Assembly (NCBI RefSeq): GCF_000382305.1
Contig: NZ_KB908021.1
Span: 134,293 to 166,292 of the forward strand
Length of the DNA: 32,000 nt
Direction: 5' to 3'
DNA from: Vitreoscilla stercoraria DSM 513
GTDB taxonomy: Bacteria > Pseudomonadota > Gammaproteobacteria > Burkholderiales > Neisseriaceae
The notes beneath the pieces are model-generated. The model was not told the DNA's origin. It made no database searches and worked only from the letters and a program-made list of their open reading frames with translations. The stretch's first letter is position 1. Every line of letters starts with the position of its first letter. Position numbers and translations under genes: made by a program. Shown piece by piece: positions 21,442 through 32,000 of the stretch.

Positions 21442-21471
21442 AAATTTAGATGAGATTTTAAAGTAGTTAAC

Positions 21472-21500
21472 AAGCGTCCTGTAACATTTACAGGACGCTT
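21472..21500. terminator. Inverted pair of the uptake-sequence-like motif (bidirectional terminator)
   Basis: AAGCGTCCTGTAAcaTTTACAGGACGCTT between convergent genes. Confidence 0.8.
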
Positions 21501-21515
21501 GTTTATATCTTAAAT

Positions 21516-22637
21516 TTATATCGTTGTCACTTGTATGTCTTTGCGCACCAACACGCCTACTGTTTCGTAATGCTGCGTGGCTGGAAACAAATCAAACAAA
21601 TCCACTTGCACCAATTCATATTCATCCAAACAAGTCACCATATCACGAGCAAAACTGGTCGGCTCACAAGCGATGAAAATCACTGCTTTGGGTTGGAATG
21701 CGGCGACAAAGTCTTTTAAGTTTTTCAAGCCTGAACGTGGTGGGTCGATAATTAAGCACGTTGGTTGCTGCAAATGTGTGGGAATAGCGGCCTGTAAACG
21801 TGTTAAAGCATCTTTGGCATACAGGTTTTGTGAAACAAATGTTTGAGTCTCGGTATTTTCAGGAGTATTGTCGCCATATTGATCCACGACCAAAGTTTGT
21901 TTGCCCAAAGGCAAGCTCAAATTGCCATTGCCGCCAAACAAATCATAAATGACCGCATCTTGTGGCAAATATTGCGTTGTCAAATGTGCCAACCATGTGG
22001 TGAGATAATGGTTCATGTGTGGGAAAACTTGCGTAAAACCACCATTGGCATAAGGACGGTTGACGCTGATGTGTATTTCATCGTCACGCCAATACAATTC
22101 AATGTGACCGCGTACAGGTTCTTGTTCGACCAATTGTAGCCATGCTTGGTTTTCATACAAACCTAAAACCGCTTCACGCACTTGTGCTTGCATCAATTGG
22201 CATTGAGAAACGGCAAACGGTTCATAATTAACATCCATCAGACCCAAAATTTGTTTGTCTTTTTGGTAATGCAATTGCACGCGGTTGCGATAATGAAAAC
22301 GCTGTGGTGCAGCATGTACGGTAATATCCACAGGTGGGAATTTGCGTAGGTGGCGTTGTAAGGCTTGTTGCTTGAAATTCAATTCGGTTGGATAGTCCAC
22401 ATGTTGGTAATCACAACCACCACATTGTGCATAATGAGGACAAGGCACATCTTGGCGTTTGGGTGAAGCTTGAATGATGTCGATGACATGGGCAAAGTGG
22501 ATGTTTTTTTTGCTGCGATAGACTTTGGCCTCTACTATTTCTTCAGGTAAGGTTTTGGCAATAAATGTAATTTGTCCATCGTCTTTGGCCACGCCTTGCC
22601 CCATGGTGTCCAAATCTATGATTTTGTAGTGCGTCAT
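21516..22637 (-). CDS. rlmD: 23S rRNA (uracil-5)-methyltransferase, RumA/RlmD family
   Basis: 373 aa with a short TRAM-like N-terminus, the Fe-S cysteine cluster CPHYAQCGGCDYQH, the SAM-binding region DLFGGNGN and the catalytic IACEPTS. Confidence 0.75.
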   Translation of the reverse strand: MTHYKIIDLDTMGQGVAKDDGQITFIAKTLPEEIVEAKVYRSKKNIHFAHVIDIIQASPKRQDVPCPHYAQCGGCDYQHVDYPTELNFKQQALQRHLRKFPPVDITVHAAPQRFHYRNRVQLHYQKDKQILGLMDVNYEPFAVSQCQLMQAQVREAVLGLYENQAWLQLVEQEPVRGHIELYWRDDEIHISVNRPYANGGFTQVFPHMNHYLTTWLAHLTTQYLPQDAVIYDLFGGNGNLSLPLGKQTLVVDQYGDNTPENTETQTFVSQNLYAKDALTRLQAAIPTHLQQPTCLIIDPPRSGLKNLKDFVAAFQPKAVIFIACEPTSFARDMVTCLDEYELVQVDLFDLFPATQHYETVGVLVRKDIQVTTI

Positions 22638-22791
22638 AATATTGTATAAGTCTTTATTGAAGCGAATTTGCCGCTATTGTACGCTAAAATAGGCAGGGTT
22701 TTAGCTGCATTATGGTACATCCATGCTAAAGCACGTAAATTTCAAAATAACATCACAACATATTTTTGGGCAGTAGAAAGCATAAGTACAC

Positions 22792-24012
22792 ATGGCATTG
22801 ACAGAATCTTGGTTAAAATCCCACCACCAAAAACCACATGACAAAGTCACAGAAGTGGCAGACAGGGACGGTATGAGTGTGCGGGTATCGCCTAAAGGGA
22901 AAATTGTGTTTCAATTGCGCTTTCGCTGGCGTGGGAAAGCGCAACGTTTGGATTTAGGCGTTTATCCTGACATGTCATTGAAACAAGCACGCTTACACAC
23001 TTGGGAGATGCGGGAGCAAATCGCTCAAGGCATAGACCCCAAGCAAGGCTTACAGGCCGCTTCTGATGATGATTTGCCTGCGGTTTTCGAGCGTTGGTAT
23101 CAGGCTTATTGTGTTGTAAACAAGAAAAACCATGCCGATATCAAACGCTCTTTTGAAATTCATGTCTTTCCGCATTTTCAACGTCAATGTTTTGGTGACA
23201 TCAGTTTGCAGCAATGGATGTTGTTATTGGACGATTTGGCTTTGCACAAAGAATCGATTGCCGCGCGGATTTTGTCCAATGCGCAACAATTGTACAAATG
23301 GGCGATGAAACGTGAATATGCCAAGCACAATGTCTTATTGGGTATTTCTGCCAAACATGATTTGCAAGTGAAAAAACGCAGTGGTGATAGGGTATTGAGC
23401 CAGACTGAAATTCAATGGCTGTGGCATGCTTTGAGTCATTCGCGCATGATGCTGAAAAACCAATTGTTTGTGAAACTGTGTTTGTTGTATGGTTGTCGCA
23501 ATGGTGAATTGCGCTTGGCTAAAAAAAGCGATTTTGATTTTCACACCAAAGTCTGGACTGTTCCACAAGAAAATCACAAAACAGGTGCTATCAGCGGTAA
23601 AGCTTTGTTGCGTCCCATAACCTCGCATACCGAGGCTTTATTGCATTTGGCCATGGATTTGAATGACAGTGAATTTTTGTTTTGTAATGCAGGTGGCGTA
23701 GAAGCGATGTCACGTTCTGTGCCTTTGTCTTTACCAACCAATATCATGCAATGGTTGAAATCTCAGCACCAAATAGACATGCCATATTGGTCTATGCATG
23801 ACTTGCGCCGTACCGCCCGCACCAATTTTAGCCGTTTGACCACGTTTGAAGTGGCTGAAATCATGTTAGGTCATGCATTACCTAAAATACAGGCCACTTA
23901 CGATCATTATGATTATTTGAGTGAGCAAACGGTGGCGTATGAAAAGTGGCATGAATGTGTTTTGGGATGGGTTAGCCATCATGATTTAGAAAAGCTGGCG
24001 TCCATCTTTTGA
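22792..24012 (+). CDS. int: Tyrosine-type site-specific integrase, P4/CP4-57/SXT-like with an N-terminal arm-binding (DUF4102-type) domain
   Basis: 406 aa. N-terminus DRDGMSVRVSPKGKIVFQLRFRWRGKAQRLDLGVYPDMSLKQAR, catalytic region HDLRRTARTNF...LGHALP...TYDHYDY. Confidence 0.9.
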   Translation: MALTESWLKSHHQKPHDKVTEVADRDGMSVRVSPKGKIVFQLRFRWRGKAQRLDLGVYPDMSLKQARLHTWEMREQIAQGIDPKQGLQAASDDDLPAVFERWYQAYCVVNKKNHADIKRSFEIHVFPHFQRQCFGDISLQQWMLLLDDLALHKESIAARILSNAQQLYKWAMKREYAKHNVLLGISAKHDLQVKKRSGDRVLSQTEIQWLWHALSHSRMMLKNQLFVKLCLLYGCRNGELRLAKKSDFDFHTKVWTVPQENHKTGAISGKALLRPITSHTEALLHLAMDLNDSEFLFCNAGGVEAMSRSVPLSLPTNIMQWLKSQHQIDMPYWSMHDLRRTARTNFSRLTTFEVAEIMLGHALPKIQATYDHYDYLSEQTVAYEKWHECVLGWVSHHDLEKLASIF

Positions 24013-24103: not shown

Positions 24104-24113
24104 CATCCCGATG
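24104..24113 (+). repeat. att-like core CATCCCGATG, copy 1 (direct repeat of prfC codons 20-22)
   Basis: Exact 10-mer, 92 bp after the integrase stop. The only other copy in the window is at 27138-27147. Confidence 0.45.
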
Positions 24114-24177
24114 ACTTTTAGCAATGGTTTCGTTACTTTTAACTTTTTTGCCAACAATCAATAATGCAGCACAGACA

Positions 24178-24207
24178 AAGCGTCCTGTAAATGTTTACAG
24201 GACGCTT
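24178..24207. terminator. Inverted pair of the uptake-sequence-like motif inside the integrase island
   Basis: AAGCGTCCTGTAAAtgTTTACAGGACGCTT followed by TTATTTTT. Confidence 0.8.
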
Positions 24208-24226
24208 TTATTTTTACAATTTTGAT

Positions 24227-24379: not shown

Positions 24380-24431
24380 GATGAACCGCCCCGGGTTTCT
24401 CGGAGACCTAACTTTCTGAGAGAATATCCGA

Positions 24432-24737
24432 ATGAAAAATACTTACTCACCTGAAATCCGTCAACGAGCGGTTCGCCTTTATCAAGAACAGCGCAGTGAA
24501 TATCCAACTCAGTGGGCCGCCACAGTGTCCATTGCCAGCAAGTTTGGCTGTACACCAGAAACACTGCGCACTTGGATTAAGAAGTTTGAAGCTGATCTGG
24601 CCGATAATGGGGCAGCGGCTGATCAAGCTCAACGCATTAAACAGCTCGAAAGAGACAATAAAGAGCTGCAACGCGCCAATGAAATTCTGCGCAAAGCTGC
24701 CGCTTTTTTCGCCCAGGCGGAGCTCGACCGCAAATAG
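24432..24737 (+). CDS. IS3-family transposase OrfA (HTH)
   Basis: 101 aa. The HTH region is followed by a leucine-zipper-like segment, LERDNKELQRANEILRKAAAFFAQ. Confidence 0.9.
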   Translation: MKNTYSPEIRQRAVRLYQEQRSEYPTQWAATVSIASKFGCTPETLRTWIKKFEADLADNGAAADQAQRIKQLERDNKELQRANEILRKAAAFFAQAELDRK

Positions 24738-25642
24738 GCGATTTGTTGGATTTTATTCATGAACACAAAATGGTGTATGGGGTCGAGTCAATTTGCCGAG
24801 TATTGCCGATTGCGCCATCCACTTATTATCGACATGCGCAAAGATTGAAACAGCCTGAATTGCGAGCCAAACGGTGCGTGTCGGATAAATGTTTATTGGC
24901 TCAAATCAACACTGTTTGGGAAGATAGTTTGCAAGTTTATGGTTACCGCAAAGTCTGGCACCAATTACAACGTGAAGGCGTTCAAGTTGCCCGCTGTACA
25001 GTTGCCAGACTGATGCGCAAACACAGCATACAAGGGGTTTGGCGGGGTAAAGGCAAACGCACTACAGTGTGTGATCCAGAGTTGCAACGGGCCGATGATT
25101 TGGTGAATCGGCAGTTTACAGCCAGTCGGCCAAATCAATTGTGGGTAGCCGATTTCACCTATGTGTCTACCCACCAGGGCTTTGTGTATACGGCTTTCAT
25201 CATCGATGTGTTTGCTCGGCGCATTGTTGGTTGGAAGGTGGCAAAACGGATGGATACCGACTTGGTGATGGATGCATTGGAGCAGGCTTTGCATGCCAGA
25301 AACAAGCCCAAACACCTCATTCACCACAGTGATCGAGGCAGCCAATATCTGTCGATTCGTTACACCGAACGTTTACAGGCCGCTCAAGTGAAGGCTTCGG
25401 TCGGAACAACTGGTGATTCGTATGACAATGCTTTGGCTGAAACGGTGAATGGTTTGTACAAAACTGAGGTCATCCATCATCAAAAACCATGGAGGCGGAT
25501 GATTGATGTTGAATTAGCAACACTAAACTGGGTGGATTGGTTCAATCATCGACGTTTGTTAAGCTCGATAGGTTATGTTCCACCAGCCGAATTTGAAATG
25601 GCGTATTATCGCCAATTGGAAGAGTCAGCCAAAGTGGCATGA
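24704..25642 (+). CDS. IS3-family transposase OrfB (DDE), expressed as OrfAB by -1 frameshift
   Basis: The slippery heptamer T_TTT_TTC sits at 24704-24710 in the orfA frame. The -1 frame is open from 24683. DDE motifs are WVADFTY, HSDRGSQY and DNALAE. Confidence 0.85.
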   Translation, partial: FFRPGGARPQIGDLLDFIHEHKMVYGVESICRVLPIAPSTYYRHAQRLKQPELRAKRCVSDKCLLAQINTVWEDSLQVYGYRKVWHQLQREGVQVARCTVARLMRKHSIQGVWRGKGKRTTVCDPELQRADDLVNRQFTASRPNQLWVADFTYVSTHQGFVYTAFIIDVFARRIVGWKVAKRMDTDLVMDALEQALHARNKPKHLIHHSDRGSQYLSIRYTERLQAAQVKASVGTTGDSYDNALAETVNGLYKTEVIHHQKPWRRMIDVELATLNWVDWFNHRRLLSSIGYVPPAEFEMAYYRQLEESAKVA

Positions 25643-25776
25643 CTCAAGATAAACTGTCTCCGAAATACTTGGGTCGGTTCATTCAACTTGGCATCATCGC
25701 TTTAAATCTTTATTGAATGAATTTCCTGATATTGATATTGACAGTTGGAAACTATGGAGTTCTTAAAATGAGAAAG

Positions 25777-25961: not shown

Positions 25962-26002
25962 ATTCTTACAATGGATTCACTTTTAATTGAAAGGTGAAAC
26001 CG

Positions 26003-26236
26003 ATGCAACAGATTACTTTAACGGCCCAAGAGGCTGTAAAAGTCCAAGATTTGAACGTGGCATGGATGCAAAAATGGCTGAACGTACATGGCGCTTATCC
26101 TGCTCTGATTGTTGATGGCGATGGTGGCAGTTTAACCCGTGCAGCCATCATTCAATTATTCGCCAACAAAAATGCCATGCCGATTCTGGAATTCCAACTA
26201 CAACACATTGCTGAGCAGTTGGGTGATACCAAATGA
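26003..26236 (+). CDS. Small protein with a peptidoglycan-binding-like (PG_binding_1-type) repeat and no catalytic domain
   Basis: MQKWLNVHGAYPALIVDGDGGSLTRAAIIQLF fits the LQ..L...GY.p..vDG.fG..T..Av..FQ pattern. SD AAGG lies 8 nt upstream of the ATG at 26003. Confidence 0.5.
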   Translation: MQQITLTAQEAVKVQDLNVAWMQKWLNVHGAYPALIVDGDGGSLTRAAIIQLFANKNAMPILEFQLQHIAEQLGDTK

Positions 26237-26598
26237 CTCTTATCGGATCTTTGCCAGCTGAATGTTTTTTTGCAGGTTGTTTTTTAGGGTTTTGTTTGGT
26301 GGGTGTACACAGCCGCGTGACCCGTTGGAACAGCGTGGCCACAATCGTGATTACCTCATTAATCGTGATTACCTCATTTGTGGCAGGCAGTTTGCCGCCA
26401 TTTTTTGGGATGTGGTTAGGCTTGCCGCGTGAAGGCTATTTATTTGTAGCAGTATTCTCAGCCATTGCTTGGCCATTTATTTCGTTGCGACTACATGAAG
26501 CATTTTTTGTAGCGTGTAACAAATTGATTTTGGCCATGCCTGATATATTGCCGGATGTGATTAAAAAGCTGTTGAGTAAGAAATGGGGAGGTGGCTGA
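26233..26598 (+). CDS. Hypothetical 121-aa membrane protein (about 3 TM), holin-like in size and topology
   Basis: ATGA start/stop overlap with the upstream ORF. It has three hydrophobic segments and a basic C-terminus, KKLLSKKWGGG. Confidence 0.6.
   Translation: MTLIGSLPAECFFAGCFLGFCLVGVHSRVTRWNSVATIVITSLIVITSFVAGSLPPFFGMWLGLPREGYLFVAVFSAIAWPFISLRLHEAFFVACNKLILAMPDILPDVIKKLLSKKWGGG
26343..26378 (+). repeat. Perfect 18-bp tandem duplication (AATCGTGATTACCTCATT x2), in frame
   Basis: Read directly. It encodes IVITSL-IVITSF within predicted TM2 of the 121-aa protein. Confidence 0.95.
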
Positions 26599-26599
26599 G

Positions 26600-26866
26600 A
26601 TGGTGATTTTACAATTCGTCATCTTGGCCGTGATGTTTGTTTTTTCTGCGTGCGTGGTGGCCAAAGAACGTTTTTGTTTGAATTGCCAACATGAAGTGGT
26701 GCGTTTGCTGTTTCATGCATCGTTTGGTACTTATGCCATGGCCCGAATCTATTGTTTGTTAAGATTTGATCCCTTGGTGCCGTGGTGGCTAATAGGAATA
26801 GAGGTTATATTAGCCATAATCATTTGTCTGCGTTTTTTGATAAAGTTATTCAAAGAGGAGAATTGA
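26600..26866 (+). CDS. Hypothetical 88-aa membrane protein (2-3 TM) with a charged C-terminus, holin/antiholin-like
   Basis: Strong SD GGAGG lies 8 nt upstream of the ATG at 26600, which is 1 nt after the upstream stop. Hydrophobic N- and C-terminal segments end in KLFKEEN. Confidence 0.55.
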   Translation: MVILQFVILAVMFVFSACVVAKERFCLNCQHEVVRLLFHASFGTYAMARIYCLLRFDPLVPWWLIGIEVILAIIICLRFLIKLFKEEN

Positions 26867-26981: not shown

Positions 26982-27017
26982 GAAGCCCTGTTTTAGATGC
27001 AGGGCTTCCGTATTTTT
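26982..27017 (+). terminator. Rho-independent terminator after the three-gene cassette
   Basis: Perfect 9-bp stem GAAGCCCTG / CAGGGCTTC followed by CGTATTTTT. Confidence 0.7.
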
Positions 27018-27080
27018 AAAAATTAGCCAAATTTTTTATTTGTACATAATTGTGTACATATCACTATCAAAGACAGCAAG

Positions 27081-28682
27081 ATGATTGAAAAAATCCAAGA
27101 AGAATCAAAGCGAAGAAGGTCATTCGCAATCATTTCACATCCCGATGCGGGTAAAACCACTTTAACAGAAAAATTATTGCTGTTCTCGGGTGCTATCCAA
27201 TCAGCAGGCACGGTCAAAGGTAAGAAGTCTGGCAAGTTTGCCACTTCAGACTGGATGGAAATTGAGAAACAACGTGGCATTTCGGTGGCATCATCAGTGA
27301 TGCAATTTGATTACCGTGAACACGTTGTCAATTTGCTCGACACTCCCGGACACCAAGACTTCTCAGAAGATACTTATCGAGTATTAACAGCCGTAGACAG
27401 CGCTTTGATGGTGATTGATGCTGCCAAAGGTGTGGAAGAACAAACCATCAAATTGTTGAATGTTTGTCGTATGCGCAATACGCCGATTGTGACATTCATG
27501 AACAAATATGACCGTGAAGTACGTGATTCTTTAGAATTGTTGGATGAGGTTGAAAGCGTCCTGAAAATTCGCTGTGCACCTGTGACTTGGCCAATTGGTA
27601 TGGGCAAAAGTTTCCGTGGTGTGTACCACATGCTCAACGACGAAGTGTATTTGTTTGAAGCGGGCGCACAAAAACTCAGTCATGAGTTTGAAGTGATTCA
27701 AGGTTTGGACAACCCTCGCTTGGACGAATTGTTCCCTATGGAAATGGAACAATTGCGCATGGAAATTGAATTGGTACAGGCCGCTTCCAATGAGTTCAAT
27801 TTGGAAGAATTCTTGGCAGGCGAATTAACACCGGTATTCTTCGGCTCAGCAATTAACAATTTTGGTGTGCGTGAAATCTTGGATGCCTTGATTGATTGGG
27901 CACCAGCTCCGCATGCACGTGCAGCCATTGAACGCGTGGTAGAGCCAGACGAGGCAAAATTCACAGGTTTCGTGTTCAAAATTCAAGCCAATATGGACCC
28001 GAAACACCGTGACCGCATTGCATTTTTGCGTGTGTGTTCAGGCCAGTTTACCCGTGGCATGAAAATGAAACACATCCGTATTAACCGTGATATTGCAGCG
28101 TCTAGCGTGGTGACATTCATGTCACATGATCGCGAATTGGTCGAAGAAGCTTATTCAGGTGACATCATCGGCATTCCAAACCATGGCAATATTCAAATTG
28201 GTGACAGCTTCTCTGAAGGTGAAATTTTGACCTACACCGGCATCCCATTTTTCGCGCCTGAAATGTTCCGCAGTGTCCGTATTAAAAACCCTCTGAAGAT
28301 GAAGCAATTGCAAAAAGGTTTGCAACAATTGGGTGAAGAAGGTGCGGTACAGGTTTTCAAACCACACAATGGCGGTGATTTGATTTTGGGTGCGGTGGGT
28401 GTGCTCCAGTTTGAAGTGGTTGCCGCTCGTTTGGCGGGTGAGTATGGTGTGGATGCGGTATTTGATTCTGCCAGCATTTGGTCGGCTCGTTGGGTGTCTT
28501 GTGACGATAAGAAAAAACTGGCTGAGTTTGAACGCGCCAATGTGTTGAATTTGTCTACCGATGCTGGTGGTAATTTGGCTTACTTGGCACCGAATCGGGT
28601 CAATTTGAATTTGACCCAAGAACGTTGGCCTGACATCACATTCCATGAAACCCGTGAATTGAACCATACATTCAATGATTGA
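27081..28682 (+). CDS. prfC: Peptide chain release factor 3
   Basis: 533 aa with [27 protein letters not shown] and NKYD GTPase motifs across a full-length RF3 pattern. Confidence 0.95.
27138..27147 (+). repeat. att-like core CATCCCGATG, copy 2 (His20-Pro21-Asp22 of prfC)
   Basis: Exact direct repeat of 24104-24113. Confidence 0.45.
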
Positions 28683-30474: not shown

Positions 30475-30828
30475 CTATGTCTTCAAATTCTGAAAATCTT
30501 GTTTCATCTGAAAAGGTGTCGGCTCTACTGGATATACTGCAATAAGAATCTTGGATTTAAAGGATAAATTCTTACAAACAGTAGGATCAATACGAATAAT
30601 GACCAATTCAATCGGTTCATTTCTAATATCGGGTTCACAAATCATAATTGATTGACTGCGATTCAAAACAATGTAATTCGGAAAAGTATCTTGAACAATT
30701 TGTTTAAAATTACCATTTTTTGATGACTTTTGAAAAATTTGCTTAAATGGTTTTTTAGGACGAATAGCCATAAACAAACAAAAAGCAATTGCAGAAAAAA
30801 TGATTAAATCATATGTATCTTTAGACAT
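30475..30828 (-). CDS. Hypothetical 117-aa protein with an N-terminal TM anchor, directly downstream of zot
   Basis: ORF with the hydrophobic segment LIIFSAIAFCLFMAI and AT-rich composition like the zot remnant. Confidence 0.55.
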   Translation of the reverse strand: MSKDTYDLIIFSAIAFCLFMAIRPKKPFKQIFQKSSKNGNFKQIVQDTFPNYIVLNRSQSIMICEPDIRNEPIELVIIRIDPTVCKNLSFKSKILIAVYPVEPTPFQMKQDFQNLKT

Positions 30829-30836
30829 GATAAAGC

Positions 30837-30877
30837 CCTACAAATAAAGAATAATGACATTATTCTTTATTTGTAGG
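30837..30877. repeat. 41-bp near-perfect palindrome (20-bp arms) overlapping the zot stop codon
   Basis: CCTACAAATAAAGAATAATG-a-CATTATTCTTTATTTGTAGG, read directly. The right arm encodes the last 5 codons and the stop of zot. Confidence 0.95.
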
Positions 30878-31722
30878 CTGTTGGATAGTAGATTGATTTA
30901 CAGACTGACTTGATGACTTATAAGGATTGTAACGACCTTCTTTCAACCACTTTTTACAAAATGCTTGTGGAATATCTAATAAAGTACCCTGGTCAGAATA
31001 TGCTTTGCAAACACCATTGGATTCAATCAATGCAACAGGATATTCAAAAGACTGAACCTTACGCACATCATCATAAATGGGCTTAGACTCGGGCATTTCA
31101 GGTAATACAGGCGTAAAATGCTGAGGTGTCAAAGATTTGGAAAGAGTTGCAGAAGAGGTTCCAGAGCCCACCGGAACAGGCTGTAAAACATCATTATTCA
31201 TTTGAGCTTCAATTTTATTTTGAGGTGCAACATCTACAACAGTAGGTTTCTGTGTGGTTTCTTTTATACGATTAGATATATGCCAAGCAGACAATAAAAT
31301 CATGCCGATACACGCAAATAAAACATAGACCATCGGACTAACACGACGTTTATGCTTAACGTGTACAGATGAGCTTTTATAATAATCAAAAGCCTTTTTA
31401 GGCGGTTTATAAAGTCTAGACGTAGCTTCTTTAAGCATCATAGGACTAAAGCTAGTCACACATTCATTCCATTCATAAAGCCTCGTAGTGGCTTGTTTGC
31501 GAGCTAAATGAATGTGTCTTGAAACCAAGTTTCTAACATACGAATCAATATTGCTAGGGTGTTGCGTCATGATAATGAGCGTATGACCCTGATGACGTAA
31601 TTCCGTCAATTTTGAAATGTAATCAGGCACAGCCTTAGTTGATGGGCGTACTGGATACACATAATGACATTCATCTACAATAATCAAAGACCCAACAGGA
31701 AACAAATTTTCTAAAGTATCAG
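30860..31722 (-). pseudogene. zot: Zonula occludens toxin-like / filamentous phage assembly protein pI, N-terminally truncated
   Basis: The Walker B region SLIIVDECH is present with a downstream TM (VYVLFACIGMILL) and a C-terminal domain. The Walker A P-loop is missing. The reading frame runs into the IS21-type end at 31722/31723. Confidence 0.8.

Positions 31723-32000
<278 letters not shown>

Follow-up and report, generated by a model that had tools for sequence, protein, structure and literature searches.

Does a housekeeping gene that lies downstream of an integrase gene begin with its own sequence, or with sequence that a mobile element has put there? The question is raised by prfC of Vitreoscilla stercoraria DSM 513 (Neisseriaceae), which encodes the core translation factor RF3 and occupies positions 27081-28682 on the + strand of a 32,000-nt stretch of contig NZ_KB908021.1, referred to as the window in the following. 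A sequence-only reading of the window had noted a cluster of rare arginine codons at the start of the gene, and had proposed that an upstream island supplies the prfC promoter and about 19 N-terminal codons, on the precedent of SXT-type elements. Our comparisons make it likely that the prfC 5' end represents the attR arm of an integrative element targeting this very site. Whether the island now lying upstream was the donor, rather than an earlier relative of it, is a separate matter, on which we lean only slightly towards the present island.

We place the 5' untranslated region (UTR), the start codon and codons 1-16 of prfC in an element-type P arm because of a repeat pair in front of the gene, a recombination core within it, the distance between the two, an integrase gene on the same strand, and the fact that only island DNA separates this integrase from prfC. 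If this assignment is correct, promoter, ribosome-binding region and N-terminal tail of RF3 all appear to be derived from a mobile element.

The First Codons of prfC

The prfC product is a complete RF3 of 533 amino acids (aa). It matches the RF3 equivalog model NF001964 (NCBIfam) with 890.9 bits at a cut-off of 473, residues 3-526 aligning to model positions 3-527, i.e., over the full length including the N-terminus, and it is composed of the Pfam domains GTP_EFTU, EF-G_D2, and RF3_C. An identical RF3 is also encoded in CP019644.2 (Vitreoscilla sp. C1, strain C1 in the following) and in CP091512.1.

Codons 11-13 of prfC are CGA AGA AGG (27111-27119), as the sequence-only reading had stated. 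Its description of the rest of the gene holds as well: the remaining 29 arginine codons comprise 18 CGT, 9 CGC, one CGA (codon 100), and one CGG (codon 506), and neither AGA nor AGG (collectively AGR) occurs among them. With a GC content of 0.33 and a GC content at third codon positions (GC3) of 0.30, codons 1-20 show the minimum GC among all 20-codon windows of the gene. The first 19 codons had been called AT-rich altogether, and here a direct count is more restrictive: the low-GC part mostly falls on codons 1-10 (0.27), while codons 11-19 already reach 0.41.

As a genome background we used 844 long open reading frames (ORFs) whose start is supported by a Shine-Dalgarno (SD) sequence. The AGR share of arginine codons in this set amounts to 11.8% in codons 1-5, about 5-6% in codons 6-25, and 3.8% past codon 60. 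Two or more AGR codons within the first 20 codons are found in three of the 844 genes, and the GC drop of prfC codons 2-20 ranks in the lowest 4%. The AT-rich prfC start with its rare arginine codons is more than chance within this genome. As a possible reason for the AGR codons, mRNA folding was compared among 216 synonymous variants, using three windows in each of two species; in the window from -15 to +45 the native arginine codons belong to the least structured 2% of the variants, a result that is window-dependent and fails in V. massiliensis.

Repeat Pair, Core, and Arm in Front of prfC

Two GTACAWA repeats with a period of 12 nt form the pair GTACATAATTGTGTACATA at 27042-27060 on the + strand, 20 nt before the prfC ATG; they start at 27042 and 27054. 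Next come the element-type 5' UTR, in which AAAGAC is a weak SD-like sequence, the start codon (27081), and the first 16 RF3 codons with CGA AGA AGG among them (27061-27128, +), a segment delimited by its sequence and by the codon counts. The recombination core, ATCATTTCACATCC, comes next at 27129-27142 (+), where it spans codons Ile17-Pro21 and would form the junction of element-derived DNA with chromosomal prfC. From the first GTACA to the core, the distance is 87 nt. The chromosomal remainder of prfC (27143-28682, +) starts inside the G1 P-loop motif, the first residues of which are covered by the core. Ahead of the pair, an intrinsic terminator-like hairpin with a 10-bp stem, six G-C pairs, and a T-run (26982-27018, +) closes the island cassette before the arm.

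The core matches ATYATYTCNCAYCC, the final bases common to attL and attR of a prfC prophage in Escherichia coli EC2341, and the same core is the end point of all eight displaced prfC fragments that we examined. The sequence-only reading had located the switch at an att-like 10-mer in codons 20-22. This 10-mer, CATCCCGATG, is present in exactly two copies in the window, at 24104 and 27138, and its prfC copy indeed overlaps the 3' end of the core; the crossover itself is to be placed at the core and hence in codons 17-21. The second copy (24104-24113, +), an exact match 92 nt past the int stop codon, is either a relic core or due to chance. No RF3-like reading frame lies beside it, and the 99 nt flanking it resemble the prfC arm no better than shuffles or other windows do (p about 0.06-0.15).

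The pair GTACATAATTGTGTACATA is unique in the V. stercoraria genome, and it is prfC-specific in all four pair-bearing Neisseriaceae genomes. An operator shared by a regulon was ruled out on account of this uniqueness and of the prfC-only position in Neisseriaceae. Neither at the pair nor at the prfC leader was a family match found in Rfam. We infer that the repeats are arm-type integrase sites of the element's P arm, and the arm at the pair may in addition carry a surrogate promoter of prfC. The (A/C)GA-AGR pattern of the arginine codons appears to be arm-specific and conserved at the nucleotide level across the element family. The rare codons had originally been taken as a sign of foreign composition in general. 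This does not hold: since the codon usage of the island is host-like, the AGR pair has to be regarded as a trait of the arm and not as "foreign" composition.

An Integrase Family Residing at prfC Junctions

The island encodes a full-length tyrosine integrase of 406 aa (22792-24012, +) with the Pfam domains Arm-DNA-bind_3, Phage_int_M, and Phage_integrase, which is assigned to phrog_1 (integrase) in PHROGs. It is located on the strand of prfC, 3.07 kb upstream of the prfC start codon, with nothing but island DNA in between. The integrase of the EC2341 prfC prophage aligns to it end to end with 43% identity (E 1e-113), and about 70% identity is reached in residues 1-60, the arm-binding domain. 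Its closest database relatives show 50-57% identity.

All eight homologues examined (43-57% identity, from E. coli to Acidovorax) reside at prfC attL junctions. Each of them is preceded by a truncated prfC 5' fragment ending at ATYATYTCNCACCC, about 200 nt (174-230) before the int ATG; the displaced piece is only about 60 nt long and unannotated. Apart from EC2341, the homologues stem from Vibrio diabolicus, Pseudomonas, Acidovorax carolinensis, Alcanivorax, Marinomonas, and two metagenome contigs. In these seven, the core is found 174-217 nt before the int ATG, and a GTACA pair with a 12-nt period follows the core without exception. Relative to the int ATG, six of the seven have this pair at about -76 to -54 and one more GTACA, the third, at -26 to -15; in the seventh, L039, the pair is at -40/-28 and a third GTACA was not seen.

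Six of the seven displaced fragments are devoid of the GTACA pair, and in five of the seven the arginine codons are CGN throughout, L040 and L192 containing one AGA each. The displaced fragment of the metagenome contig L041 carries the pair together with AGA AGG and has phage tail-like genes upstream, and the displaced fragments beside int in the metagenome loci L118 and L132 are pair-bearing, too. These three loci look like serial or tandem integrations at prfC. Displaced fragments with a pair therefore suggest that old arms persist and become targets again.

Close homologues of the integrase were identified neither in 150 Neisseriaceae species (E at most 1e-40) nor in 200 genomes that represent the families of the class with one genome each (E at most 1e-60).

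Occupied and Empty Sites in E. coli

E. coli offers both states of the site. In K-12, prfC starts with ATG ACG TTG ... AAG CGC CGC ACT TTT GCC ATT ATT TCT CAC CCG, and there is no pair in front of it. In EC2341, yjjG is followed at attL by a native prfC fragment ending in GCCATTATTTCTCACCC, then by a P' arm with GTACA repeats (TGTACATATGCTTGTACATAATGTACAAAG ... TTGTACAAGgtgagtaATG), by int, and by a lambdoid prophage of about 30 kb. The P arm at the other end reads ATGTACAAT ... TTGTACATATGATTGTACATAAT and continues into ATG ACA AGC ... GCG AAA AGA AGA ACC TTT GCA. It ends in the core ATTATTTCTCACCC, which at attR is joined to GGAC and the rest of prfC. The GTACA-N7-GTACA pair lies 85 nt before the core, compared to 87 nt in the window. 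Pair and AGA AGA codons thus belong to the phage arm in EC2341. Both arms of the E. coli prfC prophage bear the GTACA repeat, in a constant spacing to the core, and this is the layout expected of arm-type sites that an integrase would bind.

A phage-type prfC start, i.e., a GTACA pair together with AAA AGA AGA, is carried by 700 of 5426 complete E. coli genomes; about 708 of 5425 have no contiguous K-12-type start. The gene has been listed as an E. coli site of prophages, Stx phages included, and described as disrupted (PMC3603311). Contrary to the latter description, the phage arm re-makes prfC in these genomes.

The attR end of the EC2341 prophage (L190 4537-6761) also harbours a gene whose annotation reads TIR-domain anti-phage reverse transcriptase, and a DinI-like gene accompanied by CTGT-N8-ACAG, a sequence resembling a LexA box. 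This looks like defence cargo beside the attachment arm.

Distribution of the Pair and the AGR Codons

When genomes, one for each species, were scanned with a strict pattern, seven matches were obtained, five of which lie directly before prfC, including two in unrelated gammaproteobacterial metagenome-assembled genomes (MAGs). Metagenomes were scanned for GTACA-N6-8-GTACA followed 55-85 nt further on by codons for FAIISHP, which yielded at least 120 loci. The 120 loci listed form 55 clusters by gene body. Among them, the period of the pair is 12 nt in 118, and without exception 83-87 nt separate the first GTACA from the core, even though the search pattern permitted a 30-nt range.

The AGR codons go along with the pair. 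We defined the Arg cluster as the arginine codons before T-F-A. In pair-bearing prfC starts, AGR makes up 46% of the arginine codons of this cluster versus 4.5% in the gene bodies, and it does so in all GC3 classes. For comparison, we sampled one genome per family of the class (n=131), only one of which, G273, has the GTACA pair. Any AGR at the two arginine codons was found in 47 of 57 pair-bearing representatives versus 25 of the 131 family-level genomes, corresponding to an odds ratio of about 20. Within the Neisseriaceae, 147 of 151 genomes have no GTACA pair before prfC.

Thus, element-made prfC starts can be flagged by a simple signature: GTACA-N7-GTACA 83-87 nt before ATYATYTCNCAYCC, together with AGR in the Arg cluster. 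It marks the 700 E. coli genomes mentioned above as well as genomes whose element is gone. In the literature searched, we found neither this arm signature of prfC nor relic arms in element-free genomes described.

Relatives without the Integrase

The same tract precedes prfC in V. massiliensis and in two MAGs of one neighbouring genus, 73-74 nt before the SHPDAGKTT codons. The complete genome of V. massiliensis holds no integrase of the prfC-targeting family anywhere, and none was found near prfC in the two MAGs, where relic candidates were checked over 10-27 kb. In V. massiliensis, the Arg cluster is CGC AGA AGA and prfC is otherwise free of AGR.

Upstream of the tract, the DNA differs in all pair-bearing relatives. 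V. massiliensis has there a 565-aa gene without known function, a gene for a helix-turn-helix-cupin regulator, and benE. There, benE and the regulator gene lie between an rlmD-like gene and prfC, while both are located elsewhere in the V. stercoraria genome; therefore, a simple deletion history cannot be reconstructed.

Past the core, V. stercoraria and V. massiliensis are 83% identical over 60 nt; identity amounts to 74% in codons 10-18 and is poor further upstream, in a comparison in which the relative bears the same type of arm. Over the whole arm, similarity to the relatives is 64-66% (about 64% to V. massiliensis) and to unrelated lineages 60-63%. The gene body behaves differently, with 81-84% identity to V. 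massiliensis and the g17 MAGs versus about 70% to unrelated lineages. The arm of the congener thus seems no more similar to the window's arm than unrelated pair-bearing segments are.

The prfC starts of V. massiliensis and the two MAGs (L032/L055 and L056) are probably fossil attR arms, and that of G273 is a further candidate. In case of G273, no integrase was found within 12 kb upstream, which would fit either a relic or a long element. Orthologues in island-free relatives that share the first codons and the upstream region had been named by the sequence-only reading as the finding that would speak against it. The signature does occur in V. massiliensis and the two MAGs, and we read it as relic attR, which makes such a comparison an unsafe test: "island-free" relatives can mislead where relic attachment arms persist.

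We tentatively go one step further, in a suggestion that we put forward without quite favouring it: phage-like elements of one widespread family may have replaced prfC promoters and N-terminal codons time and again, their arms may outlive the elements, whole integrase-free lineages may express RF3 from a fossil attR arm, and the arginine codons may be a functional part of the arm. Under this reading, the AGR codons would act as a recombination site for an accessory protein or as a translational throttle on RF3.

Native, Ancestral, or Island-Derived Origin

Several observations weigh against an arm donated by an element. The pair at the same distance in the integrase-free V. massiliensis and the two MAGs would fit a native, vertically inherited 5' end; no empty-site genome is present among the Vitreoscilla genomes compared; attL is missing, with no core, GTACA pair, or displaced prfC 5' fragment beside int or elsewhere in the genome, so that the ends of the element cannot be matched; and the island is host-like in composition and holds variants of the host's candidate uptake sequence. 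On a rival view, the 5' end is native: in the Vitreoscilla clade the pair would be a normal promoter or operator of prfC, the AGR codons would be an inherited local quirk, and the prophage remnant would simply adjoin it, ending before 27036. The shared spacing and the similar N-terminal length in the three relatives, the AGA AGA codons in the otherwise AGR-free prfC of V. massiliensis, and the terminator standing between island cassette and pair are all in line with it. This was our first reading, and it was dropped once the pair had turned up before prfC in unrelated Gammaproteobacteria, in at least 120 metagenome loci, and in an E. coli phage arm. Elements of this integrase family bear the repeat on both attP arms and in constant phasing; prfC starts that can be considered native are without the pair (K-12, six of seven displaced fragments, 130 of 131 family-level genomes, and 147 of 151 Neisseriaceae); the arm of the window is no closer to those of its relatives than to those of unrelated lineages; and the pair-bearing displaced fragments indicate that old arms persist and are re-targeted. 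We consider a native 5' end improbable. Still less credible is the view that rare codons and low GC content reflect nothing but the AT-rich, weakly folded starts of genes in general, with no link to a mobile element. It can draw on the mild enrichment of AGR in codons 1-5 of the background set and on the one folding window with little structure, but two or more early AGR codons are confined to three of 844 genes, the folding result depends on the window and is absent in V. massiliensis, and AGR tracks the GTACA pair across lineages.

An element-derived 5' end does not by itself identify the donor. An ancestor of the Vitreoscilla clade could have received the arm from a previous element of this family, in which case the present island would have arrived later or would be unrelated to the swap. 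Relic-like arms in integrase-free relatives, serial or tandem integrations in L041, L118, and L132, and island ends that cannot be paired for want of an attL in the window are what this history would lead us to expect. However, the integrase ORF is intact, and the island directly abuts the arm, which is the layout of a single element. Moreover, the arm is 64% similar to that of V. massiliensis as compared to 84% for the gene body, a difference that fits separate acquisitions better. An older donor is therefore the less likely alternative in our view, although a serious one. As to the claim that some 19 N-terminal codons are supplied by the island, integrase family, comparison of EC2341 with K-12, geometry of the pair, and the drop in similarity speak for their origin from an element; the attribution to this particular island is the weaker part, as the donor may have been an earlier element.

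For the origin of the arm, we propose the following course of events. An arm-binding tyrosine integrase would recombine the 14-bp core ATYATYTCNCAYCC (RF3 codons Ile17-Pro21) with the same core of the element, thereby cutting prfC at about codon 20. The P arm would then front the gene body, contributing the GTACAWA pair, a promoter as a surrogate for the original one, a ribosome-binding region with its start codon, and 16-17 codons, the last of which encode K/R-R-R-T/S-F-A. The fusion would be in frame and give a full-length RF3 with a different N-terminal tail, while the original promoter and first codons would remain at attL. In V. stercoraria, attL would subsequently have been lost, so that the swap could not be reversed by excision and prfC would depend on the element-type front end.

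Decay of the Upstream Island

The left neighbour of the island is an rlmD-like methyltransferase gene (21516-22637, -). Homology to the promoter region of the V. massiliensis rlmD-like gene ends at ~22741, and the left end of the island follows directly before int as a truncated P' arm of 50 bp (22742-22791, +) with one GTACA at 22786-22790, 6 nt before the ATG. Upstream of int, there is no core-like sequence, no GTACA pair, and no displaced prfC fragment, which we read as a deletion of attL. With attL missing, site-specific excision is impossible and the swap is therefore fixed; a housekeeping gene would be permanently wired to phage-derived control DNA.

The integrase gene has a GC content of 0.436 and 8% AGR. 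Downstream of it, an element of the IS3 family of insertion sequences (IS) occupies 24384-25690 (+), with orfA at 24432-24737, orfB at 24743-25642 (Pfam HTH_Tnp_1 and rve), and a frameshift pseudoknot at 24701-24817 (Rfam ALIL, 80.9 bits). According to boundaries determined by blastn, this IS3 replaces 5.4 kb of IS fragments and prophage genes that are kept in strain C1 (CP019644.2; L034 867-6240). The phage genes of strain C1 comprise an Ant/Bro-N anti-repressor, a tail protein, a baseplate-spike-like protein, and an endolysin fragment; a 347-nt stretch with the endolysin fragment (L034 6824-7170) is likewise missing from the window. As strain C1 carries phage genes where the window has the IS3 element, the island is, by its gene content, best described as a decayed prophage. 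Its size is 4.3 kb in the window and about 9.7 kb in strain C1, and two strains of one species appear to erode it differently.

Between IS3 and terminator, three small ORFs of 80, 121, and 91 aa (25994-26866, +) are 99% identical in strain C1 and have no match in Pfam, NCBIfam, or PHROGs. The 121-aa ORF contains a perfect 18-bp tandem duplication, AATCGTGATTACCTCATT x2, at 26343-26378. A scan of the window for tRNA genes gave no hit.

Relation to Known Elements

Hochhut and Waldor reportedly described in 1999 that integration of SXT creates a hybrid prfC, in which the element provides promoter and first codons. [quoted passage not shown] As regards the target, the precedent invoked by the sequence-only reading is apt; as regards the type of element it is not, the island being a decayed prophage and not an SXT/R391 ICE. 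It has neither conjugation nor SetR/SetCD genes, and the SXT/R391 backbone of 52 core genes (about 47 kb) is absent. Outside its own cluster, the integrase has its best match at 57% in a collection of 5.8 billion sequences, a value that does not include a direct alignment with IntSXT. Furthermore, the host is a betaproteobacterium of the Neisseriaceae, and attL is lost here.

The closest parallel is the lambdoid prophage of EC2341, with which the locus shares a homologous integrase (43%), the order int-phage-arm-prfC, the core, a pair at 85-87 nt, and AGA/AGG codons. The Vitreoscilla island differs in being small and without attL, whereas the E. coli prophage of about 30 kb keeps attL and the displaced fragment. 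With lambda-type attP, the arms have in common short direct repeats on both sides at fixed distances and a separate N-terminal arm-binding domain of the integrase; unlike in lambda, the GTACAWA repeat and its spacings are specific to the prfC family, and binding to them is presumed. Restoration of the target gene's start is also a property of dusA-targeting elements. Prophages and islands with the dusA 5' end as their target have been named as a family (PMC8409611); target gene and integrase family differ from ours. Taken by its sequence features, the island appears as a new, decayed member of a wider group targeting the prfC 5' end, in Neisseriaceae, and SXT-type targeting of prfC would thereby be extended to prophages of this family.

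Additional Observations

The commonest 11-mer of the genome is GCGTCCTGTAA with 1231 copies in 2.58 Mb. Its variant GCGGCCTGTAA occurs 245 times, and the Neisseria sequence GCCGTCTGAA only four times. Inverted pairs of GCGTCCTGTAA are located at expected terminator sites at 24177-24208 and 21471-21500. The 11-mer resembles the DNA uptake sequence of the Neisseriaceae, of which it would be a Vitreoscilla dialect.

Upstream of the rlmD-like gene, V. massiliensis shares two short blocks with the window, at 22726-22741 and 22663-22687 (- strand sense). They contain TTTACSTGCTTTAGCA and a -10-like box, CGTACAATA, probably the promoter elements of this gene.

Downstream of prfC and an SDF transporter gene, a block resembling filamentous phages is found at 30475-32000 of the window and at L034 11399-17600 in strain C1, where it encodes Zot, DUF2523, a TspB-like protein, a coat-B-like protein, and Rep_trans. 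The Zot-like gene of the window is shortened (281 versus 360 aa), and the rest of the block is replaced downstream of it by IS21-type genes, which encode IstB and an rve transposase.

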